The notes: a model not told the origin generated them from the sequence alone. Shown: positions 29,762 to 54,137, counted from the stretch's first letter. The stretch: 64,000 bases of DNA from an uncultured Chloroflexia bacterium (GCA_963716375.1 OY970306.1:1378676-1442675); one strand, 5' to 3'. Translations and numbers: made by a program.

Positions 29762-29848
29762 GCCGAGGTGGCGGAATCGGTAGACGCGCTAGCTTCAGGA
29801 GCTAGTGTCCGCAAGGGCGTATGGGTTCAAATCCCTTCCTCGGTACCA
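29762..29848 (+). tRNA. tRNA-Leu (anticodon CAG), CCA encoded
   Basis: Manual cloverleaf: acceptor GCCGAGG/CCTCGGT, anticodon stem CTAGC/GCTAG with loop TTCAGGA, long variable arm, T-loop GGTTCAAATCC. Confidence 0.9.
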
Positions 29849-29885
29849 CCTTCCCTCGACCAGCGGACCCGGCGCCTTGTCTCCT

Positions 29886-29970
29886 GCCCAGGTGGCGGAA
29901 TTGGTATACGCGTACGTTTGAGGGGCGTATGACGCAAGTCATCCGGGTTCAAGTCCCGGCCTGGGCACCA
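29886..29970 (+). tRNA. tRNA-Leu (anticodon GAG), CCA encoded
   Basis: Acceptor GCCCAGG/CCTGGGC, anticodon loop TTGAGGG, long variable arm, T-loop GGTTCAAGTCC. Confidence 0.85.
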
Positions 29971-29989
29971 CTCTCCCTCGATTGATCGA

Positions 29990-30023
29990 CGACCCGCTGG
30001 CACTCACCGCCGGCGGGTCGTTT
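29990..30023 (+). terminator. rho-independent terminator candidate after the tRNA-Leu pair
   Basis: 12-bp stem CGACCCGCTGGC / GCCGGCGGGTCG with loop ACTCACC, followed by TTTCGATTC. Confidence 0.6.
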
Positions 30024-30108
30024 CGATTCGGGCGCCGGCGAAGTGGCCGAGTCTTCCGCCGCGAGGATCCGACGAGGCCGGCGGTCTCGTCGTTGCGTCG
30101 CGGTCGGG

Positions 30109-30114
30109 TAGCAT
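30109..30114 (+). promoter_or_regulatory. -10 element TAGCAT, 10 nt before tRNA-Val
   Basis: gggTAGCATcgcgcggtacGGGCGG. Confidence 0.4.
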
Positions 30115-30124
30115 CGCGCGGTAC

Positions 30125-30201
<77 letters not shown>

Positions 30202-30287
30202 GCGACCCGGGCCGCGAATTCGCGGCACGGGCCCGCGGCGTTCGCCCGGCACGGCCCAAACCAGCCCTGCCATCTCGACAATCCCCC

Positions 30288-30296
30288 TGCTAGACT
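30288..30296 (+). promoter_or_regulatory. extended -10 TGCTAGACT upstream of lemA-htpX
   Basis: The same 9-mer occurs upstream of rpsF. Confidence 0.45.
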
Positions 30297-30344
30297 CATC
30301 GGAACGGCCGCCATGCTGCCGTCCATCAAGGGGAGGGGGCCTTC

Positions 30345-30908
30345 GTGTCTCCGGTCGTCATCATCGTCATCGTGGCCGTAGTCGTGATCCTGATCGTCGG
30401 GGTCCTGATCTACAACGGCCTCGTCCAGCGCCGGCTGCGCATCGACGAAGCCTTTGCCCAGATCGACGTTCAGTTGAAGCGCCGCCACGATCTGATTCCG
30501 AATCTCGTGAACGCGGTCAAGGACTACATGGGATTCGAGCAGGAGGTCCTGACGCAGGTCACGCAGGCGCGCGCCAACGCGATCGCCGCGGGAGCCCAGG
30601 GACCGGCGGCCCAGGCCACCGCGGAGAACGCCCTGACCGGAGCCTTGCGCTCCGTCTTCGCCGTCGTCGAGAACTATCCCGATCTCAAGGCCAGCACCAA
30701 CGTCCTGGCGCTCCAGGAGCAGCTGACCACGACGGAAAACCAGATCAGCTTCGCGCGGCAGCACTACAACGCCACCGTGCTCGATTACAACCAGTCGATC
30801 CAGACGTTCCCGAGCGTCCTGATCGCCGGCCCGCTCGGATTCACGCGTCGCGAGTTCTTCGCCGCCGAGCCTGAAGCCAGCCAGGTGCCGGTCGTCTCAC
30901 TCCGCTAG
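30345..30908 (+). CDS. lemA: LemA family membrane protein
   Basis: One N-terminal TM (VVIIVIVAVVVILIVGVLIY) followed by LemA-type sequence (NGLVQRRLRIDEAFAQIDVQLKRRHDLIPNLV, ENYPDLKA). GGAGGG RBS before GTG 30345. Confidence 0.85.
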   Translation: MSPVVIIVIVAVVVILIVGVLIYNGLVQRRLRIDEAFAQIDVQLKRRHDLIPNLVNAVKDYMGFEQEVLTQVTQARANAIAAGAQGPAAQATAENALTGALRSVFAVVENYPDLKASTNVLALQEQLTTTENQISFARQHYNATVLDYNQSIQTFPSVLIAGPLGFTRREFFAAEPEASQVPVVSLR

Positions 30909-30962
30909 TCGAGGCGGCAGGCCAGGCTTCACGGCAGCGCCGGCCACCGCCCGAGGATCTCC

Positions 30963-31943
30963 GTGGCGAGTACCTTCTACAGCCAGATCGCGGCGAACCG
31001 CCGCAACTCCTTTCTGCTCGCGCTGTCCGTCGTGGGCCTGCTGGCCGCACTCGGCCTGACGATCGGATACGGCCTGACGGGCACGACTGCGGGCGGCCTC
31101 ATCGCGCTGGCAGCGGCGACCACGCTGGGCGTGCTCCTGTCGCTCGGCTCGTACTTCGGCGGCGACAAGCTCGTCCTGACCGTGTCCGATGCGAAGGAGA
31201 TCACGCAGGAACAGGCGCCCCAGCTGTTCAACGTCGTCCAGGAGCTGACGATCGCCGCGGGCATCCCGATGCCCAAGGTCTACATCATCGACGACACGGC
31301 GCCCAACGCCTTCGCCACGGGCCGCGACCCCGACCACGCATCGATCGCGATCACGTCCGGCCTGCTCCAGAAGCTCAACCGCGAGGAGCTGCAGGGCGTC
31401 ATCGGCCATGAGCTGTCCCATGTCCGCAACTACGACATCCGCTTCTCGCTGATCGTGGGCGTGCTGGTCGGCAGCATCGCCCTGCTCGCCGACTTCTTCC
31501 TGCGATTCACGTTCTGGGGCAGCGTCGGGGGCCGTCGATCGAACAACGATCGCGAGGGTGGGGGAGGCCTCCAGGCCGTCGTCATGGTCATCGCACTCGT
31601 GCTGGCGGTGATCGCCCCGATCATCGCCCGGTTCGTCCAGCTTGCCGTCAGCCGCCAGCGCGAATACCTCGCCGACGCGTCCTCGGTCGAACTGACGCGC
31701 AACCCCCACGGCATCGAAAGCGCGCTGGCCAAGATCTCGGAGGACAAGGAGGTCCTCGAGGTCGCCAACCGCGCGACCCAGCACCTGTACTTCACGAACC
31801 CGATCAAGAAGTTCGAGGCGCGCTCGAGCAACCTGATGTCGACGCACCCGCCGATCCTCGACCGGATCAACCGGCTGCGGCAGCTGACCGGCGAGCAGCC
31901 GCTGACACCGGCCGATGCGGCGCCCCTGACCGGTCTCGACTGA
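30963..31943 (+). CDS. htpX: M48-family zinc metalloprotease HtpX
   Basis: HELSHVRNYD (HExxH), TM segments flanking the catalytic domain, C-terminal STHPPILDRI. Paired with lemA, a common arrangement. Confidence 0.9.
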   Translation: MASTFYSQIAANRRNSFLLALSVVGLLAALGLTIGYGLTGTTAGGLIALAAATTLGVLLSLGSYFGGDKLVLTVSDAKEITQEQAPQLFNVVQELTIAAGIPMPKVYIIDDTAPNAFATGRDPDHASIAITSGLLQKLNREELQGVIGHELSHVRNYDIRFSLIVGVLVGSIALLADFFLRFTFWGSVGGRRSNNDREGGGGLQAVVMVIALVLAVIAPIIARFVQLAVSRQREYLADASSVELTRNPHGIESALAKISEDKEVLEVANRATQHLYFTNPIKKFEARSSNLMSTHPPILDRINRLRQLTGEQPLTPADAAPLTGLD

Positions 31944-32031
31944 GCCGGGCGGTCGCGCTCTGGCCGGGTGACGACCGGCCGGCGAGCCGCCGGCGACGAT
32001 CGACGACGAAGCGTCCTCGGGCCGTCATTCC

Positions 32032-32061
32032 TTGCTGGCCCGGAAGGGCCCGTGGTATCCT
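32032..32061 (+). promoter_or_regulatory. promoter of the five-tRNA cluster: -35 TTGCTG, 18-nt spacer, -10 TATCCT
   Basis: ccTTGCTGgcccggaagggcccgtggTATCCT, 42 nt before tRNA-Phe. Confidence 0.5.
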
Positions 32062-32103
32062 GCGGACCGCCGACGGGCAACCAAAGCCTGGTTTGGCCAT
32101 CGG

Positions 32104-32179
32104 GCCGAGATAGCTCAGTTGGTAGAGCACGCGACTGAAAATCGCGGTGTCGCCAGTTCGATTCTGGCTCTCGGCACCA
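32104..32179 (+). tRNA. tRNA-Phe (anticodon GAA), CCA encoded
   Basis: Acceptor GCCGAGA/TCTCGGC, anticodon stem CGCGA/TCGCG with loop CTGAAAA. Confidence 0.9.
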
Positions 32180-32198
32180 CCATACTGGTGGTCTTCGA

Positions 32199-32274
32199 GC
32201 GGAAGTGGCTCAGTTGGTAGAGCATCACCTTGCCAAGGTGAGGGTCGCGGGTTCGAGTCCCGTCTTCCGCTCCA
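32199..32274 (+). tRNA. tRNA-Gly (anticodon GCC), CCA encoded
   Basis: Acceptor GCGGAAG/CTTCCGC, anticodon stem TCACC/GGTGA with loop TTGCCAA. Confidence 0.9.
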
Positions 32275-32347
32275 ATTCCTTTCCTGATCTGCGGCTGACT
32301 AGACTGGTCGGGTCGGGCCGCCGCCGTCTGTGATGACTGCGGGCCGG

Positions 32348-32421
32348 TGCCCCTTCGTCCAGTGGTAGGACAGCGGACTTTGGATCCGTTAACCGAGGTT
32401 CGAATCCTCGAGGGGCAGCCA
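32348..32421 (+). tRNA. tRNA-Gln (anticodon TTG), CCA encoded
   Basis: Acceptor TGCCCCT/AGGGGCA (U1-A72), anticodon loop CTTTGGA, T-arm CGAGGTTCGAATCCTCG. Confidence 0.85.
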
Positions 32422-32456
32422 ACTCGCGCGGGAGAGCACCAGCTCGGACATCTCAG

Positions 32457-32532
32457 GGCGACGTACCCAAGTGGTTAAGGGGGAGGTCTGCAAAACCTCT
32501 ATGCATGGGTTCGAATCCCATCGTCGCCTCCA
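32457..32532 (+). tRNA. tRNA-Cys (anticodon GCA), CCA encoded
   Basis: Acceptor GGCGACG/CGTCGCC, anticodon stem GAGGT/ACCTC with loop CTGCAAA. Confidence 0.9.
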
Positions 32533-32613
32533 CTCCTTGAGCTGAGGCCCACGCGATGGCAGCTGGCAAACCGCGTGTCCACGCGGCGTTGACCGCGCTA
32601 GGCTGATGGCCGG

Positions 32614-32700
32614 GCCGGAGTGGCGGAACAGGCATACGCGGCGGACTTAAACTCCGCTGCCCGCAAGGGCATCAGGGTTCGAACCCCTGCTCCGGCACCA
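32614..32700 (+). tRNA. tRNA-Leu (anticodon TAA), CCA encoded
   Basis: Acceptor GCCGGAG/CTCCGGC, anticodon stem GCGGA/TCCGC with loop CTTAAAC, long variable arm. Confidence 0.9.
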
Positions 32701-33202: not shown

Positions 33203-34945
33203 GTGATCGTGCACAGTCGTCGCAAACTCCTGATCCTGGTCGCCACCGTGGCGATGCTCGCATCGGCGTTCACCTTCCCGGTCGCCGTCAGCGCGGCTGG
33301 GATCTCGGCGATCAACTATGCCCTTGACGGGCAGAAGGCCGGGCAGACGATTACCGGTCCGAGCACCATCACGACGTTCGCGCCGGCCAACGTCTTCACC
33401 ACCGCCGACACGATCACGTTGACGTTCCCCGCCGGAACGACCTTTGCCAGCGGTCTGACCGAGAGTTCTTTCTCCTGTCAGCAGGGAGCCGGCGCCCAAA
33501 ACTCGTTCCTGGCCGCCTCGCTCAGCGTTTCCGGTTCCGGGGGCGCGACCCCGAAGATCGCGTTCAGGTGTCAGGCCGCATCCATCGGGGCCGCAACAAC
33601 GACTGTCACGATCGCCACGAGCGTCTCGGGCGCGGGCGCGATCACGAATCCGACGACGGCAGGCAACGCATACACATTCGGCGTTTCGATCACGAACGGT
33701 AACAACGAGGTCAAGGCCGGAATCGTCGTCACCCCCGCGGCGATCAGCCCCACCGCCTCGACCTTCACGGCTTCACCCGTGGTCCTCGCGGCCAATGGCG
33801 TAGCGGTCAGCACGCTCACGGCGACGCTGAAGGACCAGTACGGCAACATCATCACCGGCAAGAACGTCGGGATCGTCCAGTCCGGCGGGACCGTGTCCAG
33901 CGTCCCAGCCTCGTCGGGCGGACCGGTCAACGGCAGCGGCGTCTTCCAGACGACGAACACCGCGTCCGGCGTGACCGGGACGGCGACCTACACGGCCACA
34001 GACACGACGGACGCCGTGCAGCTCAGCGCGACGCCTACCGTGACGTTCCAGGCCAGTCCATCGACGGTTGCCTGCGGACCTGCGGGCGGCAGCACCGCTG
34101 GAACGGCCCTCTCCATCGCGGCCGGCTCGCTCGTGAACTGCCAGTTGTCGACGGGCACGCAGTACGTCGCCGCGTCACTGGTCTGGACCGCCACGGGCTT
34201 CAGCCCCTCGGGCTCCGCGAACCTGAACCAGACATTCACTGCCGGTAACACGGCCGGGACGTACTCCATCGCCGCGACGTGGACGGACGATGGCGTCGCC
34301 ACCAGCGCGACCTTCTACTACACGATCACCAACACGGCTTCGACCGTGACCTGCAGCCTGCCCGATGGCTCGACCATCGCGGCTGGCTCGACGGTGAGCT
34401 GCACATTTACACCTGGTGGCGGCTACACGGCCGGAACCCTCAGTTGGACCGCGGGCAGCTTCACGCCCACCAACGTTGCGCCCACCAACGTCAACCCGAC
34501 GTTCACGGCCGGCAGCACGGCCGGTGCCGCCAACATCACGGCAAACTGGCAGGACAACGGCACGCCGATGTCCACAGACGTTCAACTACACGATCAGCAC
34601 GAACGCCGCGTCGATCTCGTGCAACCCGCCGAGCGGCAGCACGATTGCCGCGGGCAGCGCGGTGAACTGCGTGTTCACACAGGGTTCGGGCGGCTCGAGC
34701 GGCTTCGCCTGGTCGGGCAGCAACTTCACTCCGGCCAGCGCCGACGCCTTCACCCAGACGTTTACCGCCGCCAACGTCAGCGCGGCAGGCAGCATCGGCG
34801 CCAGCTGGAGCGACAGCTCCGGCAACCACACGGCGAACTTCAGCTACACGATCACGAACACGGGCTCGACCGTGACCTGCAGCCCACCCACGGGCTCGAC
34901 GATCGCGTCCGGCTCTCCGGTGAACTGCACGTTCACGACCGGTAG
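33203..34945 (+). CDS. giant repeat protein, ORF-track fragment 1 (signal peptide to repeat 2; meaningful to ~34573 only)
   Basis: The in-frame sequence ends at ...NITANWQDNGTPMS. The remaining translation is Arg/His/Gln-rich out-of-frame text. Confidence 0.6.
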   Translation: MIVHSRRKLLILVATVAMLASAFTFPVAVSAAGISAINYALDGQKAGQTITGPSTITTFAPANVFTTADTITLTFPAGTTFASGLTESSFSCQQGAGAQNSFLAASLSVSGSGGATPKIAFRCQAASIGAATTTVTIATSVSGAGAITNPTTAGNAYTFGVSITNGNNEVKAGIVVTPAAISPTASTFTASPVVLAANGVAVSTLTATLKDQYGNIITGKNVGIVQSGGTVSSVPASSGGPVNGSGVFQTTNTASGVTGTATYTATDTTDAVQLSATPTVTFQASPSTVACGPAGGSTAGTALSIAAGSLVNCQLSTGTQYVAASLVWTATGFSPSGSANLNQTFTAGNTAGTYSIAATWTDDGVATSATFYYTITNTASTVTCSLPDGSTIAAGSTVSCTFTPGGGYTAGTLSWTAGSFTPTNVAPTNVNPTFTAGSTAGAANITANWQDNGTPMSTDVQLHDQHERRVDLVQPAERQHDCRGQRGELRVHTGFGRLERLRLVGQQLHSGQRRRLHPDVYRRQRQRGRQHRRQLERQLRQPHGELQLHDHEHGLDRDLQPTHGLDDRVRLSGELHVHDR

Positions 34946-37900
34946 CGCCTACACGGGCGGCAGCCTCGGCTGGACCGCGAGCGGCCTCACGCCGACCGTC
35001 GTCGGCGTCAACGCCAACCCGACCTTCACGGCGGGCAGCACCGCCGGCGCGGCCAATGTCACGGCGAACTGGCAGGACAACGGCGTTCCGAAGTCCCAGA
35101 CGTTCAACTACACGATCACGACCAACGCGTCGAGCGTCACGTGCAGCCCGCCTGGCGGCACGATCGGTCCGGCCACGCCCGTGAACTGCACATTCACGAT
35201 CGGCAGCGCCTACAACGCCGGTACGCTGAGCTGGATCGGCCGGGAGCTTCACCCCGACATCGGTCGGCCCGGTCGTCGCCCCGACCTTCACGGCGGGCAG
35301 CACCGCCGGCGCCGCCAACATCACGGCCAATTGGCAGGATGGCGGCGTCGCCAAGTCCCAGACGTTCAACTACACGATCAATACCAACGCCTCGACCGTG
35401 ACCTGCAGCCCGTCGAGCGGCAATCTTTCGCCGGCCGCGGTCGTGACCTGCACGTTCACGATCGGCAGCGCCTACAACGGCGGTTCACTCAGCTGGAACA
35501 CGAGCGGCTTCACCGCGAACTCGGCCGGTGCCGTTGCTGTCGACGACGTGGACCGCGGGTTCGACGGCCGGTCCGGCCAACGTGACCGTCAACTGGCAGG
35601 ACAACGGCGTCGCGAAGACGCAGACGTTCAACTACACGATCAGCACCACCGCCTCGGGCGTGACCTGCAGTCCGGCGAGCGGGACGATTTCGTCCGGCTC
35701 GCTCGTGAACTGCCACTTCACGACCGGTAGCGCTTACACCGGTGGTTCGCTCAACTGGACCGCCGGTGGGCTGACCCCGGCTTCGGTGCCGGGCAACAGC
35801 AATCCGGTCTTCACGGCCGGCAGCACGGCCGGTCCCGGCAACATCACCGCCAACTGGCAGGACAACGGCGTCGCGCAGTCGCAGACGTTCAACTACACGA
35901 TCAGCACCACGGCCTCGTCCGTGACCTGCAGCCCGCCGACGGGCTCGACGATCGCGGCCGGCGCCCAGGTGAACTGCACGTTCACGCTCGGCACGGCCTA
36001 TAACGGCAGCTCCCTCAGCTGGACCGCCAGCGGCCTCGCTCCCGCGACCGTCGGCGTGAATACCAACCCGACCTTTACCGCCGGCAACACGGCCGGCCCC
36101 GGCAACGTCACAGCCAATTGGCAGGATGGCGGGGTCGCGAAGTCGCAGACGTTCAACTACACGATCAGCACCACGGCCTCGAGCGTGAACTGCAACCCGG
36201 GCGGCGGCACCGTTGCCGACGGCCAGGTTGTCAACTGCTCGTTCGCCCCGGCACGGGGTATGTCGGCGTCGCTGGCCTGGACCTCGAGCCAGTTCAGCCC
36301 GGCCACCAGCGCCGCGGCCTTCCCGGCCTTCACGGCCGGCAATACGTCGGGTCCGGCGAGCATCACCGCCACGTGGACTGACGGCACCGGCAACCACTCC
36401 CAGACCTTCAGCTACACGATCAGCACGACCGCGTCGACGATCGTCTGCAATCCGCCGAACGGCGCCTCCCTGACGGCCGGCGACCAGGTCAACTGCACGT
36501 TCATCGCCGGCGCCGGATATGGCGCGAACCTGGCCTGGACGGCCACGAACTTCACGCCGACCAGCAGCGGCAGCGGGACCCCGGTCTTCACGGCCGGCAA
36601 CGTCAACGCGACCGGCACGATCGGCGCCACCTGGACCGACGGCGCCGGATCCCACTCCGCGCTGTTCAGCTACACCATCACGAAGCTTTCCTCTGCGGTC
36701 ACCTGCAACCCGCCCAACGGCACGATCGCCGTCGGCTCGGTCGTGAACTGCTCGTTCACCCCGGGCACGGGCTACGGCGGCAACATCAGCTGGACCTCGA
36801 CGGGCTTCAGCCCCTCGGGTCCCGTGACGACCGTCTCCGCGCCGTTCACGGCCGGTGGCACGGCCGGGGCGGCCCAGATCAACGCGACCTGGAGCGACAG
36901 CGCCGGGAACCACTCGGTCAGCTTCAACTACACGATCAGCGCCAGCCTCTCCTCGGTCACCTGCAGTCCGCCCTCGGGCACGATCGCAGCCGGCCAGGTG
37001 GTGCCCTGCGCCTTCACCGCCGGTGATTCCGCGGCCGGCCTTGCCTGGTCCGTGCCGGGCTTCGTCGCCGGGCCGAGCGGTTTCAACCCGTCCTTCACGG
37101 CCGGCAGCACGGCCGGTCCGGCCAGCATCACCGCCTCCTGGACCGACGGTGGCACGAACCACTCCCAGACCTTCAGCTACACGATCAGCACGACCGCCTC
37201 GGTCGTGAACTGCAACCCGGCCAACGGCACGATCGCCGTCAGCTCGGTCGTCAACTGCTCGTTCGTCCCCGGCACGGGCTACTCCGTCCCGGTCGCCTGG
37301 AGCTCGGTTGACTTCAACCCGGCGAGCTCGGTCTTCCAGAACCCGTCCTTCACCGCCCAGGGCACGGCCGGCGCGGCGAGCATCACCGCCACCTGGGCCG
37401 ACGCCTCCGGCGCTCACTCGGTGACCTTCGGCTACACCGTCAGCGCCAGCCTCTCCTCGGTCACCTGCAGTCCGCCCTCGGGCACGATCGCGGCGGGCCA
37501 GGTGGTCCCCTGCGCCTTCACCGCCGGCGATGCCTCGTCCGGCCCGACCTGGGCCGTGGCCGGCTTCCCGGCAGGACCGAGCGGCAACAACCCGTCCTTC
37601 ACGGCCGGCAACACCGCTGGCCCCGCGAGCATCACCGCCTCCTGGACCGACGGTGGCACGAACCACTCCCAGACCTTCAGCTACACGATCAGCACGACGG
37701 CCTCGCTGGCCAACTGCGTGCCGCCCAGTGGCAATGTCGCGACCGGCGCGGTCGTGAACTGCACGTTCACCCCGGGTACCGGCTACGGCGGCAACATCCC
37801 GTGGAGCCAGACGGGCTTCACCGGTCCAGCCACGACCGGGACCAATTCCCCGTCATTCACCGCTGGTTCGGTGGCCGGCCCGGCCGTGCTCACCGCCACC

Positions 37901-40900
37901 TGGAGTGACGCCGCCGGCGCGCATTCGCAGAGCTTCAACTACGTGATCAACACCTCGTCCTCTGCGGTCACCTGCAACCCGCCCAACGGCACGATCGCCG
38001 TCGGCTCGGTCGTGAACTGCTCGTTCACCCCGGGCACGGGCTACGGCGGCAACATCAGCTGGACCTCGACGGGCTTCAGCCCCTCGGGTCCCGTGACGAC
38101 CGTCTCCGCGCCGTTCACGGCCGGTGGCACGGCCGGGGCGGCCCAGATCAACGCGACCTGGAGCGACAGCGCCGGGAACCACTCGGTCAGCTTCAACTAC
38201 ACGATCAGCGCCAGCCTCTCCTCGGTCACCTGCAGTCCGCCCTCGGGCACGATCGCAGCCGGCCAGGTGGTGCCCTGCGCCTTCACCGCCGGTGATTCCG
38301 CGGCCGGCCTTGCCTGGTCCGTGCCGGGCTTCGTCGCCGGGCCGAGCGGTTTCAACCCGTCCTTCACGGCCGGCAGCACGGCCGGTCCGGCCAGCATCAC
38401 CGCCTCCTGGACCGACGGTGGCACGAACCACTCCCAGACCTTCAGCTACACGATCAGCACGACCGCCTCGGTCGTGAACTGCAACCCGGCCAACGGCACG
38501 ATCGCCGTCAGCTCGGTCGTCAACTGCTCGTTCGTCCCCGGCACGGGCTACTCCGTCCCGGTCGCCTGGAGCTCGGTTGACTTCAACCCGGCGAGCTCGG
38601 TCTTCCAGAACCCGTCCTTCACCGCCCAGGGCACGGCCGGCGCGGCGAGCATCACCGCCACCTGGGCCGACGCCTCCGGCGCTCACTCGGTGACCTTCGG
38701 CTACACCGTCAGCGCCAGCCTCTCCTCGGTCACCTGCAGTCCGCCCTCGGGCACGATCGCGGCGGGCCAGGTGGTCCCCTGCGCCTTCACCGCCGGCGAT
38801 GCCTCGTCCGGCCCGACCTGGGCCGTGGCCGGCTTCCCGGCAGGACCGAGCGGCAACAACCCGTCCTTCACGGCCGGCAACACCGCTGGCCCCGCGAGCA
38901 TCACGGCCTCCTGGACCGACGGTGGCACGAACCACTCCCAGACCTTCAGCTACACGATCAGCACGACGGCCTCGCTGGCCAACTGCGTGCCGCCCAGTGG
39001 CAACGTCGCGACCGGCGCGGTCGTGAACTGCACGTTCACCCCGGGTACCGGCTACGGCGGCAACATCCTGTGGAGCCAGACGGGCTTCACCGGGCCGGCC
39101 ACGACCACGACCAATTCCCCGTCATTCACCGCTGGTTCGGTGGCCGGCCCGGCCGTGCTCACCGCCACCTGGAGTGACGCCGCCGGCGCGCATTCGCAGA
39201 GCTTCAACTACGTGATCGTCGTGATCGGCTCCTCGGCGGACTGCAACCCGCCCAGCGGCACGATCGCGTCGAGCTCCGTCGTGAACTGCTCGTTCAGCCT
39301 CGGGCACCGACCTCACGGCCGGCCCGGCTGGACGGCAACCGGCTTCAGCTCACTCGGTGGCGGCAACTCGCCGAGCTTCCAGGCGGGCACCGCGGCCGGC
39401 CCGGCCACCATCTCGGTCACCTGGACCGACTCGACGGGCAGCCATTCCAAGGGCTTCAACTACGTGATCAGCATCACGGACTCCAGCGTCGCCTGCAGCC
39501 CGCCGTCGGGCAGCACGATCGGCGCCGGGACCACCGTCAACTGCACGTTCGCCCCCGGCACCGGGCTCAGCTCGGGCCCGACCTGGACCGCCAGCGGCTT
39601 CGCGGCCAATGGCGGCGGCAACAACCCGAGCTTCCTCGCCGGCAGCACGGCCGGTCCGGCCACGATCACCGCGTCGTGGAGTGACAGCAACGGCTCGCAC
39701 TCGCAGGGCTTCAACTACACGATCAGCACGACCGGCCTCGTCGGTCAGCTGCAACCCGTCCGGCGGCGTCGTCGTCGACGGCCAGGTCGTCAACTGCTCC
39801 TTCAGCGCCGGCCAGGGCTTCGTGACCCTGGCGTGGACCACGAGCCACTTCACCGGCCCGGGCGCGGCTTCGCGCCGGCGTTCAGCGCCAACACCGTCGC
39901 CGGTCCGGCCAGCATCACTGCCACCTGGACCGACGGCCAGGGCAACCACAGCCAGAGCTTCAACTACACGATCAGCACGACGGCCTCCACGGTCGTCTGC
40001 AACCCGGCCAGCTTCTCGACGATTGCTGCCAGCTCGACCGTCCAGTGCCAGTTCAACGCTGGCGCCGGATACAGTGGTGGCAGCCTGGCCTGGACCGCCA
40101 GCAACTTCACGCCGGTCAACAGCCCGATCAGCCCGGTGACCTTCACGGCCTCGGCCAGCGGGGGCACCGGCACCATCCAGGCCACCTGGACCGATGGCTC
40201 GGGCTTCCACAGCCAGACCTTCACCTACACGATCAGCACCACGGCCTCACTGGCGAGTTGCAACCCGGCCGGCGGCCCCGTCGCGACGAACCAGGTCGTC
40301 AACTGCTCCTTCAACGCGGGCTCGGGGTATGTCGCCCTCAGCCTGAACTGGTCCACCGCCGGGTTCGCGCCCGGTAGCAGCGCCAGCGTCGTGCCGTCCT
40401 TCACGGCCGGCACGATCGGCGGGCCGGCCAGCATCACGGCCACGTGGAATGACGGCTCCGGCGTCCATAGCCAGAGCTTCAACTACACGATCAGCACGAC
40501 GGTCTCGGCCGCAACCTGCAACCCGGGCAGCGGCACCATCCCGGCCAGTAGCGTCATCAACTGCTCGTTCACCGCATCGGTTGGCTACACCCCAGGCTCG
40601 CTCGTCTGGACGCTGTCGTCGGGCCTCAGCTTCGATCCGAACAGCACCTCCACGAGCATCGCTCCGGTGGTCCTCGCCGGCACGACGCTCGGTCCCGTCC
40701 ACATCACGGCCAACTGGTCCGACTCTTCGGGCAACCGCAGCCAGGGCTTCAACTACACGATCGGGACGACCCCGTCGCTCGTGAACTGCAGCCCGGCCAA
40801 TGGCAACATCGCCCCGGCGTCAATCGTGAACTGCCTGTTCACCCCGGGGTCCGGCTATGCCGGGAACCTCGGCTGGACCAGCAGCAACTTCACGCCGGCC

Positions 40901-41972
40901 ACGATCAACGCTCTTGAGTCCGGCGTTCACCGCCGGCACAACCGGAGGGGCGGCCACGATCACCGCATCGTGGAGTGACAGCAGTGGCCCGCACACCCAG
41001 GCGTTCAGCTACAACGTCTCGAGTTCATCGTCGAGCGTGTCCTGCACGCCGGTGAGCGGTACCTCGTTCGCACCTGGGTCGGTCGTCAACTGCCTCTTCA
41101 CAGCGGGTCCGGCGTTCGTCCTGGGGTCGCTCGTTTGGACGGCAAGCAACTTCACTCCGGCGAGCAGCACCGCCAACCCGGGCCAGGCCTTCACGGCCGG
41201 CGCGACCGGGGGAGCGGCGTCCATCACGGCCACCTGGAACGACGGGGCACCCCGGACCCAGACCTTCGTCTATACCATCACCTCCTCGGCGACGCTGGTC
41301 TGCAACCCCGTCGGCGGGGCGCTGAATGCCGGCCAGGCGGTCATCTGCGGCTTCACCGGAACCGCGGGCTCCACCTTCACCGGCTGGGCATCCACGGGCT
41401 TCACGCCGAATCTCAGCGCCGCGACCACCCAGGTCTTCGTCGCTGGGGCGCCGAGTCTGACGGCATCGATCACCGGCACCTGGACCGACAGCTCGGGCGG
41501 ACACTCCGCGGTCTTCCTGTACTCGATCGTCGGGGCGCCCGTTCCGCCAATCCCGCCGATCGGTGTCAAGACCTCGATCACGGCAAGCTCGGCCCTGGGC
41601 AAGACCAAGGACCCGACCAGGTTCACGGTCGGCACCAAGGTGGCGTCCATCGTTCCCGGCACCAACAATGTCGTGACAATTCGCTTCAAGATGTCGCCCT
41701 CGACAGCGGGCAAGATCATCCAGATCTACAAGGCCAGCCGGGCCTGCGTCTCGGGGACGCCTCCCGGCCAGGTCGTCTGCACCCCTGGCCATCACTACAA
41801 CGGCTGGTCGGGCTTCACGCTCTTCACGGCCCGTGCGGTCGATGCCGATGGGTTCGCCTACATGTACGTCTCGACCAAGACCGCCCAGTGGCTGTCGTTC
41901 TACGGGTCATTCCCGGGCGACACCGTCCAGGGTCCTGGCCGATCGCAGACCCAGCAGGTTCGCTGGAAGTAA
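33203..41972 (+). CDS. giant secreted tandem-repeat protein (~2,900 aa): signal peptide, N-terminal domain, Big_1-like Ig domain, 29 copies of an ~85-95-aa two-Cys repeat, and a distinct C-terminal domain. The frame is interrupted by at least 6 indels.
   Basis: GTG 33203 follows an AGGGGG RBS. The signal peptide is MIVHSRRKLLILVATVAMLASAFTFPVAVSA|AG. Repeat consensus: TFNYTISTTASSVTCSPPSGTIAAGQVVNCTFTPGTGYGGNLSWTASGFTPA..NPSFTAGSTAGPASITASWTDGGTNHSQ. Coding sense is followed across frames at ~34574, ~35235, ~35540, 39734/~39866 and ~40915, plus a possible pair at ~39299/~39329. A hairpin terminator follows the stop at 41970-41972. Confidence 0.85.
34416..35585 (+). CDS. giant repeat protein, ORF-track fragment 2 (repeats 3-5; meaningful ~34575-35234)
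   Basis: Repeat sequence QTFNYTISTNAASISCNPPSG ... AYNAGTLSW is in this frame. The flanks are out of frame. Confidence 0.6.
   Translation: MAATRPEPSVGPRAASRPPTLRPPTSTRRSRPAARPVPPTSRQTGRTTARRCPQTFNYTISTNAASISCNPPSGSTIAAGSAVNCVFTQGSGGSSGFAWSGSNFTPASADAFTQTFTAANVSAAGSIGASWSDSSGNHTANFSYTITNTGSTVTCSPPTGSTIASGSPVNCTFTTGSAYTGGSLGWTASGLTPTVVGVNANPTFTAGSTAGAANVTANWQDNGVPKSQTFNYTITTNASSVTCSPPGGTIGPATPVNCTFTIGSAYNAGTLSWIGRELHPDIGRPGRRPDLHGGQHRRRRQHHGQLAGWRRRQVPDVQLHDQYQRLDRDLQPVERQSFAGRGRDLHVHDRQRLQRRFTQLEHERLHRELGRCRCCRRRGPRVRRPVRPT
35398..35730 (+). CDS. giant repeat protein, ORF-track fragment 3 (repeat 6; meaningful ~35236-35540)
   Basis: TCSPSSGNLSPAAVVTCTFTIGSAYNGGSLSWNTSGFTANSAG is in this frame. 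Confidence 0.55.
   Translation: MTCSPSSGNLSPAAVVTCTFTIGSAYNGGSLSWNTSGFTANSAGAVAVDDVDRGFDGRSGQRDRQLAGQRRREDADVQLHDQHHRLGRDLQSGERDDFVRLARELPLHDR
35528..40978 (+). CDS. giant repeat protein, ORF-track fragment 4 (repeats 7-27, 1816 aa; contains one or two internally compensated frameshift pairs)
   Basis: This is the longest open stretch. The repeat consensus is readable throughout except 39734-39866, where the sense sequence ASSVSCNPSGGVVVDGQVVNCSFSAGQGFVTLAWTTSHFTGPG lies in another frame, and possibly 39299-39329. Confidence 0.75.
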   Translation: MPLLSTTWTAGSTAGPANVTVNWQDNGVAKTQTFNYTISTTASGVTCSPASGTISSGSLVNCHFTTGSAYTGGSLNWTAGGLTPASVPGNSNPVFTAGSTAGPGNITANWQDNGVAQSQTFNYTISTTASSVTCSPPTGSTIAAGAQVNCTFTLGTAYNGSSLSWTASGLAPATVGVNTNPTFTAGNTAGPGNVTANWQDGGVAKSQTFNYTISTTASSVNCNPGGGTVADGQVVNCSFAPARGMSASLAWTSSQFSPATSAAAFPAFTAGNTSGPASITATWTDGTGNHSQTFSYTISTTASTIVCNPPNGASLTAGDQVNCTFIAGAGYGANLAWTATNFTPTSSGSGTPVFTAGNVNATGTIGATWTDGAGSHSALFSYTITKLSSAVTCNPPNGTIAVGSVVNCSFTPGTGYGGNISWTSTGFSPSGPVTTVSAPFTAGGTAGAAQINATWSDSAGNHSVSFNYTISASLSSVTCSPPSGTIAAGQVVPCAFTAGDSAAGLAWSVPGFVAGPSGFNPSFTAGSTAGPASITASWTDGGTNHSQTFSYTISTTASVVNCNPANGTIAVSSVVNCSFVPGTGYSVPVAWSSVDFNPASSVFQNPSFTAQGTAGAASITATWADASGAHSVTFGYTVSASLSSVTCSPPSGTIAAGQVVPCAFTAGDASSGPTWAVAGFPAGPSGNNPSFTAGNTAGPASITASWTDGGTNHSQTFSYTISTTASLANCVPPSGNVATGAVVNCTFTPGTGYGGNIPWSQTGFTGPATTGTNSPSFTAGSVAGPAVLTATWSDAAGAHSQSFNYVINTSSSAVTCNPPNGTIAVGSVVNCSFTPGTGYGGNISWTSTGFSPSGPVTTVSAPFTAGGTAGAAQINATWSDSAGNHSVSFNYTISASLSSVTCSPPSGTIAAGQVVPCAFTAGDSAAGLAWSVPGFVAGPSGFNPSFTAGSTAGPASITASWTDGGTNHSQTFSYTISTTASVVNCNPANGTIAVSSVVNCSFVPGTGYSVPVAWSSVDFNPASSVFQNPSFTAQGTAGAASITATWADASGAHSVTFGYTVSASLSSVTCSPPSGTIAAGQVVPCAFTAGDASSGPTWAVAGFPAGPSGNNPSFTAGNTAGPASITASWTDGGTNHSQTFSYTISTTASLANCVPPSGNVATGAVVNCTFTPGTGYGGNILWSQTGFTGPATTTTNSPSFTAGSVAGPAVLTATWSDAAGAHSQSFNYVIVVIGSSADCNPPSGTIASSSVVNCSFSLGHRPHGRPGWTATGFSSLGGGNSPSFQAGTAAGPATISVTWTDSTGSHSKGFNYVISITDSSVACSPPSGSTIGAGTTVNCTFAPGTGLSSGPTWTASGFAANGGGNNPSFLAGSTAGPATITASWSDSNGSHSQGFNYTISTTGLVGQLQPVRRRRRRRPGRQLLLQRRPGLRDPGVDHEPLHRPGRGFAPAFSANTVAGPASITATWTDGQGNHSQSFNYTISTTASTVVCNPASFSTIAASSTVQCQFNAGAGYSGGSLAWTASNFTPVNSPISPVTFTASASGGTGTIQATWTDGSGFHSQTFTYTISTTASLASCNPAGGPVATNQVVNCSFNAGSGYVALSLNWSTAGFAPGSSASVVPSFTAGTIGGPASITATWNDGSGVHSQSFNYTISTTVSAATCNPGSGTIPASSVINCSFTASVGYTPGSLVWTLSSGLSFDPNSTSTSIAPVVLAGTTLGPVHITANWSDSSGNRSQGFNYTIGTTPSLVNCSPANGNIAPASIVNCLFTPGSGYAGNLGWTSSNFTPATINALESGVHRRHNRRGGHDHRIVE
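36689..39217 (+). repeat. near-perfect 1,269-bp tandem segmental duplication (five repeat units per copy) inside the array
   Basis: 36689-37948 aligns with 37958-39217 at a constant offset of 1,269. The first ~947 bp look identical by eye. I found 7 substitutions in the last ~310 bp, the first at 37636/38905. ORF-track pairs 36855/38124, 36928/38197 and 37432/38701 give identical peptides. Confidence 0.9.
40857..41972 (+). CDS. giant repeat protein, ORF-track fragment 5 (repeats 28-29 and a ~150-aa C-terminal domain; meaningful from ~40915)
   Basis: SPAFTAGTTGGAATITASWSDSSGPHTQAFSYNVS... continues to a non-repeat C-terminus (...CVSGTPPGQVVCTPGHHYNGWSGFTLF...QQVRWK). Confidence 0.7.
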   Translation: MPGTSAGPAATSRRPRSTLLSPAFTAGTTGGAATITASWSDSSGPHTQAFSYNVSSSSSSVSCTPVSGTSFAPGSVVNCLFTAGPAFVLGSLVWTASNFTPASSTANPGQAFTAGATGGAASITATWNDGAPRTQTFVYTITSSATLVCNPVGGALNAGQAVICGFTGTAGSTFTGWASTGFTPNLSAATTQVFVAGAPSLTASITGTWTDSSGGHSAVFLYSIVGAPVPPIPPIGVKTSITASSALGKTKDPTRFTVGTKVASIVPGTNNVVTIRFKMSPSTAGKIIQIYKASRACVSGTPPGQVVCTPGHHYNGWSGFTLFTARAVDADGFAYMYVSTKTAQWLSFYGSFPGDTVQGPGRSQTQQVRWK

Positions 41973-48859: not shown

Positions 48860-50689
48860 CTATGGACCAGGCGGCGGCGTCAGTCTCGGGGTCGCGCCGG
48901 CGGTCGTCACGATGATGTCGACCTTGACCTTCGGGTCGGTCACCAGCACGGGTTTCACGCCGAGCAACTGCGTCAGGCGCTGGATCGTGGTCGGCAGGCG
49001 ATCCTCGGCCCCGTTGTAGACCTGGATCCTCGTCCCGGTCAGGCCCGTCAGGTCCGCCTTCTGGTTCGGCGCGCTGGCCGTCATGCCCTGGTATTCGAGG
49101 AAGGCCGCCAGGTCGCTCGCCTGGCCCTGGACGCCGCTCCCGTTGAGAACCCAGACCGTGCCGTTCTCGGCGCCGATCTTCTCGCGCAGCGCCTCCGTCT
49201 TGGGATCGGTGTTGAAGGCATTCGCGACGGCGTTGCGGATCTTGGCGACGTTCGGAACGATGATGTAGCCGCGGCCCTTGCCGGTCGGGTCGTTGTTGTA
49301 CTGCGTCTGGTAGATCGGCGGCGCGAACACGAACGAGCGCAGGTTGGTCGTGTCGATGCTGCCGGCGAGGCCCATCAGCTTGGGCAGCTGATTGATCGGA
49401 ATGTCCGTGTGGACCGCCGCGCGGAGCGCCTGCACGAGGTCCGGCAGCTTGCCGATCAGGGAGCCGATGTCCGACTGCTGCTTGAGTGACAGCAGGACGC
49501 GCTGCTGGCGCTGGGCCCGATCGAAGTCCGTGGAGGCGTGGCGGGCCCGGGCGTAGACCAGCGCCTGCGCGCCGGTCATGTGCTGGATGCCGGCCGGGAT
49601 GTAGATCCGGTGGAGCCGGCCGTCGTCGCCCGGGTAGTAGTCGTCCATGACCGGCACCTGGACGTCGATCGTCACGCCGCCGAGCGCGTCGATGACCTTG
49701 CGGAAGCCGTCGAAATTGACCTCGACGTAGTACTTGATGTCGATGCCGTAGAGGTTGCCGAGCACGGTCTTGAGGGCGCCGAAGCCGCGCTGGGCCTGGT
49801 TGCCGGGGAACAGGTCGGGCCGGGCCGTGGCCGCCGTCCAGAGGCTGTTGATCTTGCCGTCATAGGACGTCCCGAAGACCGACTGCCAGGGCCCGGGCGG
49901 CAGCGGCACGTCGACCGTGTCGCGCGGAATGCTGAACATCGCGACCTGGCCGCTGTCCGGGTCGATGCTGGCCACGATCAGCGTGTCCGTGTTGAACGTG
50001 CTCTCCTTGGGCCGCTGGTCCGCGCCGATCAGGAGGATGTTCAGGCGGCCGCCGGTCCAGGGCGGGATCGAGGCGGCCGGGGCGGCCGTGACGCTCGGGT
50101 TCGGGGTCCCGACGTTGAGCGTCGGGGCGAGGCTCGGCGAATCGGTCGGGCCGAGGTCCGAGCTGCTGGGCGCCGGCGAATCGGTGGCGTCGGGCCCGCA
50201 GGTGTTCGTCGAGGCGTCGAAGATGCAGTCGATCTGCTGGGCCTGGAGGTCGTAGTAGGCGACGGCGACGTGGGCGCCGCTCAGGACCAGCAGCACGGCC
50301 AGCAGGCCGGCCAGCGACGCCGGGCCGAGCGGCCCGCGCGAGGCCATGCCGCCGCGCGGATCGATCCCGGCATCCACCGCGTTCAGGTAGCGGGCGACGC
50401 GCCAGGCGTCCACCGCGGCCACGATGCGGTAGAGCAGGACCACGATGTTGACGATCAGGATGCCGGTCAGGACGTCAGGCTGGATCAGGAATCCCAGCAG
50501 CTCGAGGTGATTGGTCCGGAGGGCAATGCCGCCCGCCAGCGCGACGAGCAGGAGGGGCGCCGCGGCGAACGCGAGCGCGCGCGACCAGGCGCCACAGTAG
50601 GCATGACCGAGACCTGGGAAGAGCAGCGACAGGAACGCGGCCGCAAACGACGAGCGAACCCGTGGCCGCCCCTCCTGCGACGTTGGCAT
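48860..50689 (-). CDS. LytR-CpsA-Psr (LCP) family cell-wall glycopolymer ligase with an N-terminal TM region and a LytR_C-like C-terminus
   Basis: LNILLIGADQRP, DTLIVASIDP and SIPRDT. ATG 50689 is preferred over the TTG 50716 used in the ORF track. Confidence 0.85.
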   Translation of the reverse strand: MPTSQEGRPRVRSSFAAAFLSLLFPGLGHAYCGAWSRALAFAAAPLLLVALAGGIALRTNHLELLGFLIQPDVLTGILIVNIVVLLYRIVAAVDAWRVARYLNAVDAGIDPRGGMASRGPLGPASLAGLLAVLLVLSGAHVAVAYYDLQAQQIDCIFDASTNTCGPDATDSPAPSSSDLGPTDSPSLAPTLNVGTPNPSVTAAPAASIPPWTGGRLNILLIGADQRPKESTFNTDTLIVASIDPDSGQVAMFSIPRDTVDVPLPPGPWQSVFGTSYDGKINSLWTAATARPDLFPGNQAQRGFGALKTVLGNLYGIDIKYYVEVNFDGFRKVIDALGGVTIDVQVPVMDDYYPGDDGRLHRIYIPAGIQHMTGAQALVYARARHASTDFDRAQRQQRVLLSLKQQSDIGSLIGKLPDLVQALRAAVHTDIPINQLPKLMGLAGSIDTTNLRSFVFAPPIYQTQYNNDPTGKGRGYIIVPNVAKIRNAVANAFNTDPKTEALREKIGAENGTVWVLNGSGVQGQASDLAAFLEYQGMTASAPNQKADLTGLTGTRIQVYNGAEDRLPTTIQRLTQLLGVKPVLVTDPKVKVDIIVTTAGATPRLTPPPGP

Positions 50690-50695
50690 CGCGGG

Positions 50696-50701
50696 TAGGA
50701 T
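50696..50701 (+). promoter_or_regulatory. -10 element TAGGAT upstream of ileS
   Basis: gggTAGGATactcgg, ~65 nt before ATG 50767, in the divergent region shared with the LCP gene. Confidence 0.4.
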
Positions 50702-50766
50702 ACTCGGACGGTCCAACGCCCGCCAGCGAGACCGCCCAACCCCAATTCGTGCGCAGCCGAGGTCCG

Positions 50767-53700
50767 ATGTTCCGTTCCGTCAGTTCCAGGCCCGACCTGA
50801 TCAGCCAGGAGCGCGAGATGCTCGAGCTCTGGCGGGAGCGGCGGACATTTGCCCGCCTGCGCGCCCAGAACGAGGCCGGTCCGCACTGGAGCTTCCTCGA
50901 CGGGCCGATCACGGCCAACAACCCGATGGGCGTCCATCACGCCTGGGGCCGTGCCTACAAGGACCTCTTCCAGCGCTTCCACGCGATGCAGGGTCACAGC
51001 CAGCGCTGGCAGAACGGCTTCGACTGCCAGGGCCTCTGGGTCGAGGTGAACGTCGAGCGGGAGCTCGGGTTCACGAACAAGCGCGACATCGAGGCGTTCG
51101 GAATCGCCGAGTTCGTCAGCCTCTGCAAGCAGCGCGTCCTGACGTTTGCGGCTCGCCAGACCGAGCAGAGCATCCGCCTCGGGATGTGGATGGACTGGAA
51201 CGACGCCGACGAGCTGCGCCGGCTGCGCGACCTGCTGGCCGCCGATCCGGCGCAGGTGGCCACGACGCCCGGCACGGCCGGGCCGGTCACCGATACGGTC
51301 GAGATGCTCGTCGGGCGGCTCGGGATGCCCGAGATCGGCGGCAGCTACTTCACGTTCTCCAACGAGAACAACGACCTGATCTGGGGATTCCTCGCCGAGT
51401 GCCACCGGCGCGGCTGGATCTACAAGGGCCACGACACGATGCCCTGGTGCGCCCGCTGCGGCACCGGCCTCTCGCAGATGGAGATGAACGAGGGCTACCA
51501 GGATCGCGACGACCCGGGCCTGACGGTGCGGTTCCCGCTCGTCGACCGGCCCGGCGAGAGCCTCCTCGTCTGGACGACGACCCCCTGGACGCTGACCTCG
51601 AACGTGGCCGCGGCCGTCGGCGAGGATCTCACCTACGTCCAGGTCCGCCAGGGCGACGAACGGCTGTGGGTCGGCAAGGGGACGCTCAGGCACGCCGTGG
51701 AGGGGCCGTTCACGGTCGTCGAGGAGCGCCCCGGTCGCGACCTCGTCGGCTGGCGGTACGCCGGACCGTTCGACCACCTGCCGGCCGTCCAGGACGCCTT
51801 CGCGACCGGCTCGAACCTGCACGCACCGGGCGCCGCCGGCACTGGCCGTGCCCTATGAGCACCGGGTCGTGGCCTGGGACCTCGTCGGGGAGGAGGAGGG
51901 GACCGGCATCGTCCACATCGCCCCGGGTTGCGGGGCCGAGGACTTCCAGCTCGGGAAGGCGCTGGGCTTGCCCGTCATTGCGCCACTCGACGAATCCGGC
52001 CGCTACCTGAAGGGCTTCGACTGGCTGACCGGGCGGGCCGCGGCCGAGGTCGCCGACGAGATCGTGGACCGGCTCCAGGTCAGCGGGCGGTTCTACCGTC
52101 TCGAGACGATCAACCACCGCTACCCGCATTGCTGGCGGTGCGGGACGGCGCTCCTCTTCCGCCTCGTCGACGAGTGGTACATCAGCATGGGCCCGGTCTA
52201 CGACCAGCCTCGCGACACGCTCACCAGCGAGCAGGTCGACGGCAGCCTCCGCTACCAGATCATGGAGATCGTGGATCAGATCCGCTGGCTGCCGGGCTTC
52301 GGCTATGAACGGGAGCTGGACTGGCTCCTGAACATGCACGACTGGATGATCAGCAAGAAGCGCTACTACGGCCTCGCGCTGCCGATCTACGACTGCCAGG
52401 CGTGCGGCACGTTCAGCGTCGTCGGCGGCCGCGAGGAGCTGCACCAGCGCGCGGTGGCGGGCTGGGCCGAGTTCGAGGGCCACACCCCGCACCGGCCCTA
52501 TGTCGACGCCGTGAAGATCGCCTGCTCGGGCTGCGGTGCGCCGGTCGAGCGCATCCAGGACGTCGGCAACCCCTGGCTCGACGCCGGGATCGTGCCGTTC
52601 TCGACGCTCCACCAGCGCGAGGATCCGGACTACTGGGCGCAGTGGTTCCCGGCCGACTTCATCACGGAGAGCTTCCCGGGCCAGTTCCGCAACTGGTTCT
52701 ATTCGCTGCTGGCGATGTCCACCGTGCTGCGCCGCGAGCCGCCGTTTCGGACGATCTTCGGCTACGCCCTCGTCTTCGGCGAGGACGGCCGGCCGATGCA
52801 CAAGAGCTGGGGCAACGCGATCGACTTCGACGAGGCCGCCGAGCGGATGGGCGTGGACGTCATGCGCTGGACCTTCGCCAACGCCCGGCCCGACGACAAC
52901 ATCCTGTTCGGCTGGCACGCCGCCGACGAGTCGCGGCGCGAACTGCTCGTCCTGTGGAACGTCTACGCGTTCTTCGTGACGTACGCCCGGATCAAAGGGT
53001 GGACCCCGGCCGTGGAGCTGCTGGCCCGATCCGAGGTTCGCCCGGCGATGGACCGCTGGATCCTGTCGCGAACGGCCCGCCTGGCGGCCGAGGTCGAGCG
53101 ATCCCTGGCCGACTACGACGCGCTGGCGGCCAGCCGGGCGATCTCGGATCACATCGATGACCTGTCGACCTGGTACCTGCGGCGAACGCGCACGCGGATC
53201 TCGCGGCGGGACGCTTTTGATCACGCCGCCGCCCTCGTCACGCTGCGCGAGGCTCTGGTCGCCCTGGCCACCATCATGGCCCCGATCACGCCGTTCCTGG
53301 CCGATTCGATGTACCAGAACCTCGTCGTCGCGGTCGATCCCGAGGCGCCCGATAGCGTCCATCTGACGCAGTTGGCCGACCGCGGCCCTGGCCGCCCACC
53401 GGGACGAGCCGCTCGAGGCGGCGATGGCGACGACCCGGCGCGCCGTCGAGCTCACCCGGACCCTGCGCTCGCAGGCCGGCCTGCGCGTCCGCCAGCCGCT
53501 GGCGCGACTCTGGCTGGCGCTGCCCGGCGGCGATCTCGTCGACCGCGACGAGCTGCTGGAGCTGCTGGCGGAAGAGGTCAACGTCAAGGCCGTCGAGCTG
53601 ATCGGCGACGAGTCGAGCCTCGTGGACCGCCGGGTCAAGCCGCTGCTGCCGAAGATCGGCAAGCGCCTGGCCGGGGCGATCCCGGCCGTCATGGCCGCGG

Positions 53701-54137
53701 CCCGCGCGGGTGAGGTCGAGTACCTGCCCGACGGTGGCGTCCGCCTGGCCGGCGTCACGCTCGCCCCGGACGAGGTCGAGATCCTGGCCACACCGCGGCC
53801 GGGGACGGCGGTCGCCCACGATGAGGGCCTGGTCGTCGTCGTCGACACGGAGCTGACGCCCGAGCTGCGGGCGGAAGGGGATGCCCGTGAGCTCCAGCGG
53901 GCGATCCAGGACCTGCGCCGCGAAGCCGAGCTGAACCTGGACGACCGGGTCACGGTCTGGGTCGAGCCGCTGCCCGCGGCACTCCGGCCCTACCTCGACG
54001 CCGTCCGCAGCGAGACGCTCGCCGACGAGATCCTCGATGGGGCCATTCCGGCCGACGTCCAGCGCTCGATCGTCGAGCTCGACAGCGGTTCGGTCGCGTT
54101 CGGCCTCCGGGCCCGCGTCCCGGCGGCGCGCGCGTGA
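50767..54137 (+). CDS. ileS: isoleucyl-tRNA synthetase, frame broken by two +1 indels (~51843 and ~53372)
   Basis: Three ORF-track pieces read through colinearly: PITANNPMGVHHAWGR (HIGH-type), CARCGT/CWRCGT zinc knuckles, MHKSWGN (KMSKS-type), and a C-terminal anticodon-binding region. The second junction reads SVHLTQ|WPTAALAAHRDEPLEAAM at CAGTTGGCC. Confidence 0.9.

Follow-up and report, generated by a model that had tools for sequence, protein, structure and literature searches.

A near-identical five-unit tandem duplication in a giant Ig-like repeat gene of an uncultured Chloroflexia bacterium

A giant repeat gene and its duplicated block

A 64,000-nucleotide stretch of DNA from an uncultured Chloroflexia bacterium (GCA_963716375.1 OY970306.1:1378676-1442675; hereafter the window, with positions counted from its first base) carries a giant gene whose product is dominated by a tandem array of 29 immunoglobulin (Ig)-like units, and within this array two adjacent blocks of five units are nearly identical. 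The features of the locus are collected in Table 1. In the assembly the gene is spread over four open reading frames (ORFs; 33203-34945, 34416-35585, 35528-40978 and 40857-41972) that read one repeat in successive frames. Two orthologs were found in Joint Genome Institute (JGI) metagenomes, P0002 (1,227 amino acids (aa), N-terminally truncated) and P0003 (616 aa, from a 2-kb contig); in both the frame is open, and both have the C-terminal domain in common with the giant gene.

Table 1. Features of the giant repeat gene, with positions in the window
Feature	Position	Strand	Remarks
Giant gene	33203..41972	+	~8.8 kb, ~2,920 codons as a conceptual reading; four ORFs in the assembly
Signal-peptide-like leader, VIVHSRRKLLILVATVAMLASAFTFPVAVSAAG	33203..33295	+	Read off the translation, no predictor
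Big_1 / Invasin_D3 Ig-like domain, aa 182-284	33746..34054	+	Pfam scan
29-unit array	34040..41513	+	Units of ~85 aa (249-273 bp), two cysteines each, Ig-like fold
Frame break 1	34567..34575	+	Extra A (TCC-A-CAG) relative to unit 4
Frame break 2	35233..35238	+	Extra T (TGGA-T-CGG) relative to unit 4
Frame break 3 (+1)	35515..35530	+	Frame analysis
Copy 1 of the duplicated block	36689..37948	+	Units 11-15 minus the first 24 bp of the unit 11 linker
504-bp-offset similarity, unit 12 versus unit 14	36840..37300 (copy 2: 38109-38569)	+	Mosaic
Zone with all 7 inter-copy differences	37636..37839 (partner 38905-39108)	+	Codon comparison
Junction spacer, AACACCTCG	37949..37957	+	9 bp = 3 codons; linker FNYVI-NTS-SSAVTC; three-way alignment
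Copy 2 of the duplicated block	37958..39217	+	Units 16-20
Frame breaks 4 and 5	39728..39860	+	Compensating pair in unit 23
Frame break 6 (+1)	40900..40912	+	Unit 27
C-terminal non-repeat domain, ~150 aa	41514..41972	+	62% identical to the P0002 C-terminus; also in P0003

The two copies were compared at a fixed offset of 1,269 bp, which corresponds to 423 codons. Exact matching at this offset sets in at 36689 and ends at 37948, and beyond both borders of the block identity drops within 10 bp to the inter-unit background of 60-70%. Across the 1,260 aligned positions there were 7 mismatches and 0 indels (copy 1/copy 2: 37636 C/G, 37735 T/C, 37800 C/T, 37825 T/G, 37828 A/G, 37838 G/A and 37839 G/C). 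Adjacent copies, a fixed offset, near-identity and sharp borders together mark the region as a recent tandem segmental duplication. With a period divisible by 3 that also fits the unit register, the duplication stays in frame, and the linker formed where the copies join is of normal inter-domain length. The initial annotation, made from the sequence by a model, had described a near-identical 1,269-bp duplication of repeats 11-15 and 16-20, identical over the first ~947 bp and carrying 7 substitutions thereafter; our comparison matched this to the base, including the substitutions it had singled out as examples, and reproduced its numbering of the repeats among the 29 units. Tandem Repeats Finder, run with a period limit of 500, reports only the period of ~258 bp.

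The differences between the copies are unevenly distributed. None falls in the first 947 bp and all 7 lie in the last 313 bp (2.2%), a clustering with P = 5.8e-5 under a uniform spread, and with P about 4e-3 if the four differences that lie inside 15 bp are taken as one event. This switch calls for a recombination or conversion boundary, as plain divergence after a single duplication would not produce it, in agreement with the conversion-tract boundary that had been proposed at the outset. At the codon level there are six changes: four synonymous changes at the third position, one Pro/Leu replacement and one double change, GGG/ACG (Gly/Thr). Three A/T-ending codons of copy 1 stand opposite G/C-ending codons of copy 2. 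With four of the six codon changes synonymous and with A/T-ending codons set against G/C-ending ones, the differences have the look of mutations that passed purifying selection and do not resemble the type of error found in this assembly. For the cluster at 37825-37839, no donor for either variant was found genome-wide at <=5 mismatches, so micro-conversion from another unit is unsupported as its source.

The duplication could also be real while its 7 differences are co-occurring strain variants or consensus errors, in which case there would be no conversion boundary. The nearest named relatives by TpiA, Candidatus Limnocylindrales (Chloroflexota; 66% identity), are all metagenome-assembled genomes (MAGs), which leaves room for such variants; four of the seven differences fall within 15 bp, as a single local event or a polishing error at that spot could produce, and neither variant has a donor in the genome. 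However, mainly synonymous third-position changes are unlike random consensus errors, and the errors of this assembly are insertions, and we therefore consider this explanation very unlikely.

The copies meet at a junction that reads GTGATCAACACCTCGTCCTCT. Its 9-bp spacer differs, in a three-way alignment, both from the 9 bp 5' of copy 1 and from the 9 bp 3' of copy 2. The 21-mer spanning the junction occurs once in the genome even when 3 mismatches are allowed, so a single-copy locus gives no template for the junction. In the same alignment the start of unit 21 (39242..39297, + strand; ~55 bp) was about 85% identical to the starts of units 11 and 16. The flanks of the block have peculiarities of their own. 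The linker 5' of copy 1 (36680-36688) encodes T-K-L (ACGAAGCTT), is AT-rich for the genome and is unlike every other unit linker; the linker 3' of copy 2 (39203-39232) reads FNYVI-VVI-GSSADC and is not of the usual STTAS type. The flank 3' of copy 2 (GTCGTGATC) is a 9-bp direct repeat of the bases before it (CGTGATCGT/CGTGATCGG), and the equivalent linker of P0002 is closer to the junction than to the present linker between units 20 and 21. For these two reasons the flank 3' of copy 2 may be the derived state.

Older repeat layers and lineage specificity

The duplicated block is the youngest of several layers, which we read from a 29 x 29 matrix of DNA identity between units. Against an inter-unit background of 60-70%, units 11-15 are 96-100% identical in DNA to units 16-20, so that each unit has its near-copy five units away. 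Between neighbouring units, DNA identity is only 60-80% and protein identity 41-72% (mean 53%). Units 12 and 14, one period of 504 bp apart, reach 88% DNA identity, compared with 60-73% to their neighbours. Their likeness has a mosaic character: sequence of ~80% identity is interrupted by exact runs of 71 bp (37124-37194) and 52 bp (36936-36987). Runs of this length far exceed what a uniform spread of mismatches gives (P = 5e-5 by mismatch shuffling), a pattern consistent with patchy gene conversion. A further block, at 69-80% DNA identity, comprises units 2 and 4-8, and units 9, 23 and 25 are 74-78% identical. The sub-array of units 2 and 4-8 (34313-36151) has the signature NWQDNG and holds three of the six frame breaks listed in Table 1. 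At least four duplication ages are thus visible inside one bacterial gene, the youngest of them with a recombination boundary.

A maximum-likelihood tree of the units places u12, u17, u14 and u19 in one clade with support 100/97, while the pairs u11/u16, u13/u18 and u15/u20 group together in a separate clade. The initial annotation had noted that units 12 and 14 resemble each other more than their neighbours, which the matrix bears out, and had deduced from it an A-B dimer structure. The tree does contain two sub-families, but a uniformly young 504-bp repeat is not seen, as identity among the A-type units (11, 13 and 15) is no higher than 70-73% in DNA and 56-63% in protein. Likewise, the block is nested as described, but by the unit boundaries used here it divides into 258 + 504 + 507 bp rather than 261 + 504 + 504 bp. 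The more general proposal of an origin in recent recombination or conversion agrees with an in-frame five-unit duplication nested in older layers.

The repeat appears to be confined to few lineages. A profile of the unit gave no match in 60 relatives, of which 2 share the genus, 34 the family and 24 the order of the bacterium; several of these are assemblies of 1-10 contigs, in which the repeat gene would not have been lost by fragmentation. Because the repeat family is absent from these relatives, the giant gene appears to be accessory and fast-evolving. Between the window and P0002, the only long ortholog, a comparison of array lengths as proposed in the initial annotation was possible. The P0002 units are collinear with window units 21-29, and upstream of them P0002 has one unit like unit 11, one like unit 12 and one further unit, that is ~3 units where the window has 10, although neither P0002 nor P0003 gives the full array length of its own species. 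In the unit tree, the P0002 unit q2 is sister to (u12,u17,u14,u19) with support 97/90, and q1 falls with u11/u16 and u13/u18 in one clade with support 96/87. Since P0002 has ~3 units against 10 and units 12 and 14 are in-paralogs in the tree, the expansion of the array is lineage-specific, and it was in the lineage of the window that the 504-bp and 1,269-bp duplications arose or were homogenised.

Sequence from the same species was sought in protein, genome and metagenome collections, and none was found in those searched. The N-terminal 446 aa had no near-identical sequence among genome contigs; the duplicated region, searched against 5.8 billion proteins, recovered only the gene itself and P0002 (53% identity), and a single 423-aa block searched against the same set recovered only P0003 (47%) and the window's own ORFs. 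In metagenome contigs, the exact 28-mer of the junction was not found and a degenerate pattern for unit 13 gave no conspecific match.

Frame breaks and the origin of the duplication

How far the fine detail of this locus can be trusted depends on the assembly. A hidden Markov model of GC content at third codon positions (GC3) places frame switches in the giant gene at 34575, 35235, 35523, 39733, 39854 and 40907, and those breaks that could be pinpointed are extra single bases outside homopolymers. None of the six lies inside the duplicated 2.5 kb. As background we aligned the ORFs of two same-genus genomes to this genome; over 111 kb of conserved coding sequence the frame changed 14 times, or ~0.1 per kb. 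The same kind of defect is seen elsewhere in the window: ileS (50662-54137) is broken up into three ORFs, each matching the next part of the ileS model TIGR00392 (3 to ~290, 310-803 and the C-terminal part), a sign of single-base indel errors in the assembly. We infer that the six breaks are mainly insertion errors of the assembly, worsened by the repeats during polishing, because the invariant residues of the units are kept, codon periodicity is intact, the orthologs are open and ileS has the same defect. Extrapolated genome-wide, ~0.1 frame change per kb amounts to a few hundred broken genes. Insertion errors probably also explain the reported completeness of 88.6% for a genome in a single contig. 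With single-base insertions at ~0.1 per kb in its coding sequence, annotation of this genome, the giant gene included, must be frame-aware.

A different reading of the same breaks is that the gene is a decaying pseudogene, so that the duplication would be neutral slippage in dead DNA and no working length-variable surface protein would exist. Six breaks in 8.8 kb is five to six times the assembly background, and none of the 60 relatives has the gene. Yet all units have kept their invariant residues (Cys, Trp, Asp, Phe and Tyr), including the frame-broken ones when read across the breaks, GC3 periodicity runs intact along the whole gene, and there are no in-frame stops besides the shifts. Moreover, most of the changes that separate the copies are synonymous, the essential gene ileS carries the same kind of break, and P0002 and P0003 are open across equivalent units. 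On this evidence we consider a pseudogene very unlikely.

The quality of the assembly also bears on whether the second copy exists. The true locus might have one block, falsely expanded, or at least three, collapsed, if the assembly was built from noisy long reads. The assembly is visibly imperfect, with ileS in three frames, ~0.1 break per kb and six breaks in the giant gene; the reported completeness is 88.6% for a single contig, and it is in repeats that errors of consensus and of copy number arise. What speaks against an artefact is, first, the unique 9-bp junction, which implies at least one real junction from the fifth unit of a block to the first unit of the next in the reads. Second, the copies differ by 7 substitutions and 0 indels, the opposite of the assembly's error type. 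Third, a single contig of 3.68 Mb suggests long reads, which would normally span 2.5 kb. Lastly, the duplication lies mid-contig and not at an end, and is exactly in frame and in unit register. The initial annotation had warned of mis-assembly at this point; the unique junction and the substitution-only, mostly synonymous differences weaken that concern without removing it, and we consider an artefact quite unlikely.

An in-frame tandem duplication of five units, present in at least two copies, is very probably real, as judged from its sequence features. A fuller account, in which the 1,269-bp duplication is very recent and was followed by a second recombination event, also seems likely to us. 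Unequal exchange between misaligned sister chromosomes at paralogous unit starts may have added five in-register domains, and the start of unit 21 would be a candidate homology patch for such an exchange with unit 11. The second event could have taken either of two forms. Gene conversion might have re-homogenised the first 947 bp of an older duplication that had reached ~2% divergence, with the conversion tract bounded by the left end of homology; or a very young duplication might have received a diverged tract in the last 313 bp of one copy. In an earlier round, units 13-14 would have come from a dimer of units 11-12, and units 12 and 14 would then have undergone patchy conversion. A joint expansion may likewise have produced units 2 and 4-8. 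Units 9 and 23 are sisters.

Several points weigh against this account. The 9-bp spacer agrees with neither of the flanks; a single clean unequal crossover does not predict this, and is accordingly rejected as the complete account. The copy number, taken from the assembly, would be 2 or a larger number collapsed to 2. If the sequence is a metagenome-assembled consensus, strain variants placed on one copy could account for the 7 differences. Finally, six frame breaks in 8.8 kb stand against ~0.1 per kb elsewhere (expected 1.1; Poisson P about 0.001), and this excess would reflect either a consensus degraded by the repeats, in which case less trust is due to fine detail, or decay of the gene.

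Concerted evolution of tandem arrays through unequal crossing-over and gene conversion is a classical model. The giant gene resembles it in its nested layers of different age, its mosaic unit identity and the sharp switch from 0% to 2.2% divergence, and differs from it in nothing of kind; the 9-bp junction patch is not what a single clean exchange would leave. We class the locus as an ordinary intragenic duplication of recent date, shaped by concerted evolution, in a giant repeat protein made of a rare Ig-like domain. Duplication is the ordinary way in which surface-protein genes of this type grow and change length, and the present one opens no new question. It offers a clean case of concerted evolution in a single gene, one that codes for a giant, probably surface-located protein in an uncultured Chloroflexota lineage of freshwater or soil, and a locus worth checking for strain-level length variation in long-read metagenomes.

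The Ig-like unit and comparison with known surface proteins

The gene product is probably secreted and located at the cell surface, to judge from its translated features: a signal-peptide-like N-terminus is followed by an Ig-like domain for which PF09134 exceeded its gathering cut-off (39.2 bits against 33, aa 182-284) and PF02369 stayed below (27.8 bits against 34.9). Alongside these features no anchor motif was recognised in the protein, and a Pfam scan of the C-terminal ~150 aa gave no match.

In an alignment of the 20 intact units, nine residues are invariant (C5, P7, C20, W34, A54, W67, D69, F78 and Y80), and the unit is recognised by two conserved cysteines together with W, W-x-D and F-x-Y-x-I motifs. 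Matches of one unit in a tblastn search of the 3.68-Mb genome were confined to the giant gene. An AlphaFold2 (AF2) model of unit 11 built on this alignment, with a predicted local distance difference test score (pLDDT) of 93.9 and a predicted template-modelling score (pTM) of 0.83, is a seven-strand beta sandwich. Its top fold matches were PKD, FN3 and Ig domains with template-modelling (TM) scores of 0.54-0.64, the highest (0.64) to the PKD domains 1b4r and 1l0q, and a Foldseek search of the model against the Protein Data Bank (PDB) returned nothing at E <= 1e-3. As modelled, the unit is an Ig-like beta sandwich, with a likeness at the level of the fold only.

No Pfam model reached its cut-off against single units, the best being Flg_new_2 at E = 0.0063 (2 of 20 units) and Big_9 at E = 0.54, so that single units have no significant match to Pfam PKD, Big_x or Flg_new_2. 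DUF4333 scored 28.7 bits summed across a 1,324-aa piece, with no single stretch above the cut-off. When a profile of the unit was searched against 1.84 billion representative proteins, 125 matches were obtained at E <= 1e-3, among them single C-terminal domains of Kelch/beta-propeller proteins. The matches P0008-P0012, P0029 and P0041 are small secreted proteins of ~200 aa that contain the two-cysteine Ig-like domain twice, or Kelch/beta-propeller proteins that have it once, at the C-terminus. The search thus brings to notice a rare two-cysteine Ig-like domain family without a Pfam model. With the PKD-, Big- and FN3-type domains of surface and S-layer proteins (1b4r, 1l0q, 4jgu, 3pdg) the unit has in common a seven-strand sandwich of ~85 aa, and the likeness extends to the genuine Big_1/Invasin_D3 domain that precedes the array. 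It differs from them in having no significant Pfam or Foldseek match and in its own Cys/W/W-x-D/F-x-Y-x-I signature.

Among surface proteins built from repeats, the Periscope Proteins are the closest in plan. These are bacterial surface proteins of variable length, such as SasG/Aap, Rib, Sgo_0707, Esp and CdrA, in which recombination between highly identical tandem domains alters the length of the stalk, and most of the families in the Periscope survey are Ig-like E-set folds (PMC8201768). Like them, the giant protein appears to be secreted and consists of a long tandem array of small beta-sandwich domains, and its stretch of very high DNA identity is one on which intragenic recombination can act to add or remove domains. 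It differs in that near-identity is limited to one five-unit block in two copies, with neighbouring units at 41-72% protein identity compared with the >90% usual in Periscope arrays. For the giant gene, no variation in length between strains is on record. The organism is a free-living Chloroflexota relative rather than a host-associated pathogen, and the protein has no identified anchor motif.

Nevertheless, the five-unit block may serve as a functional cassette for length variation in a Periscope-like stalk protein of a free-living, Limnocylindria-like Chloroflexota, though we think this unlikely. If it were so, stalk length would change by whole blocks of five different domains, so that identical domains never adjoin, a different solution to the misfolding of identical neighbouring domains, and the stalk would be made of a two-cysteine Ig-like family without a Pfam model.

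Upstream of the giant gene lie eight tRNA genes (29762-32700), for Leu-cag, Leu-gag and Val-tac and then for Phe, Gly, Gln, Cys and Leu-taa, separated from its start by about 500 bp of non-coding DNA. Because it is absent from all of the relatives searched, the giant gene looks like an accessory gene beside a tRNA cluster.

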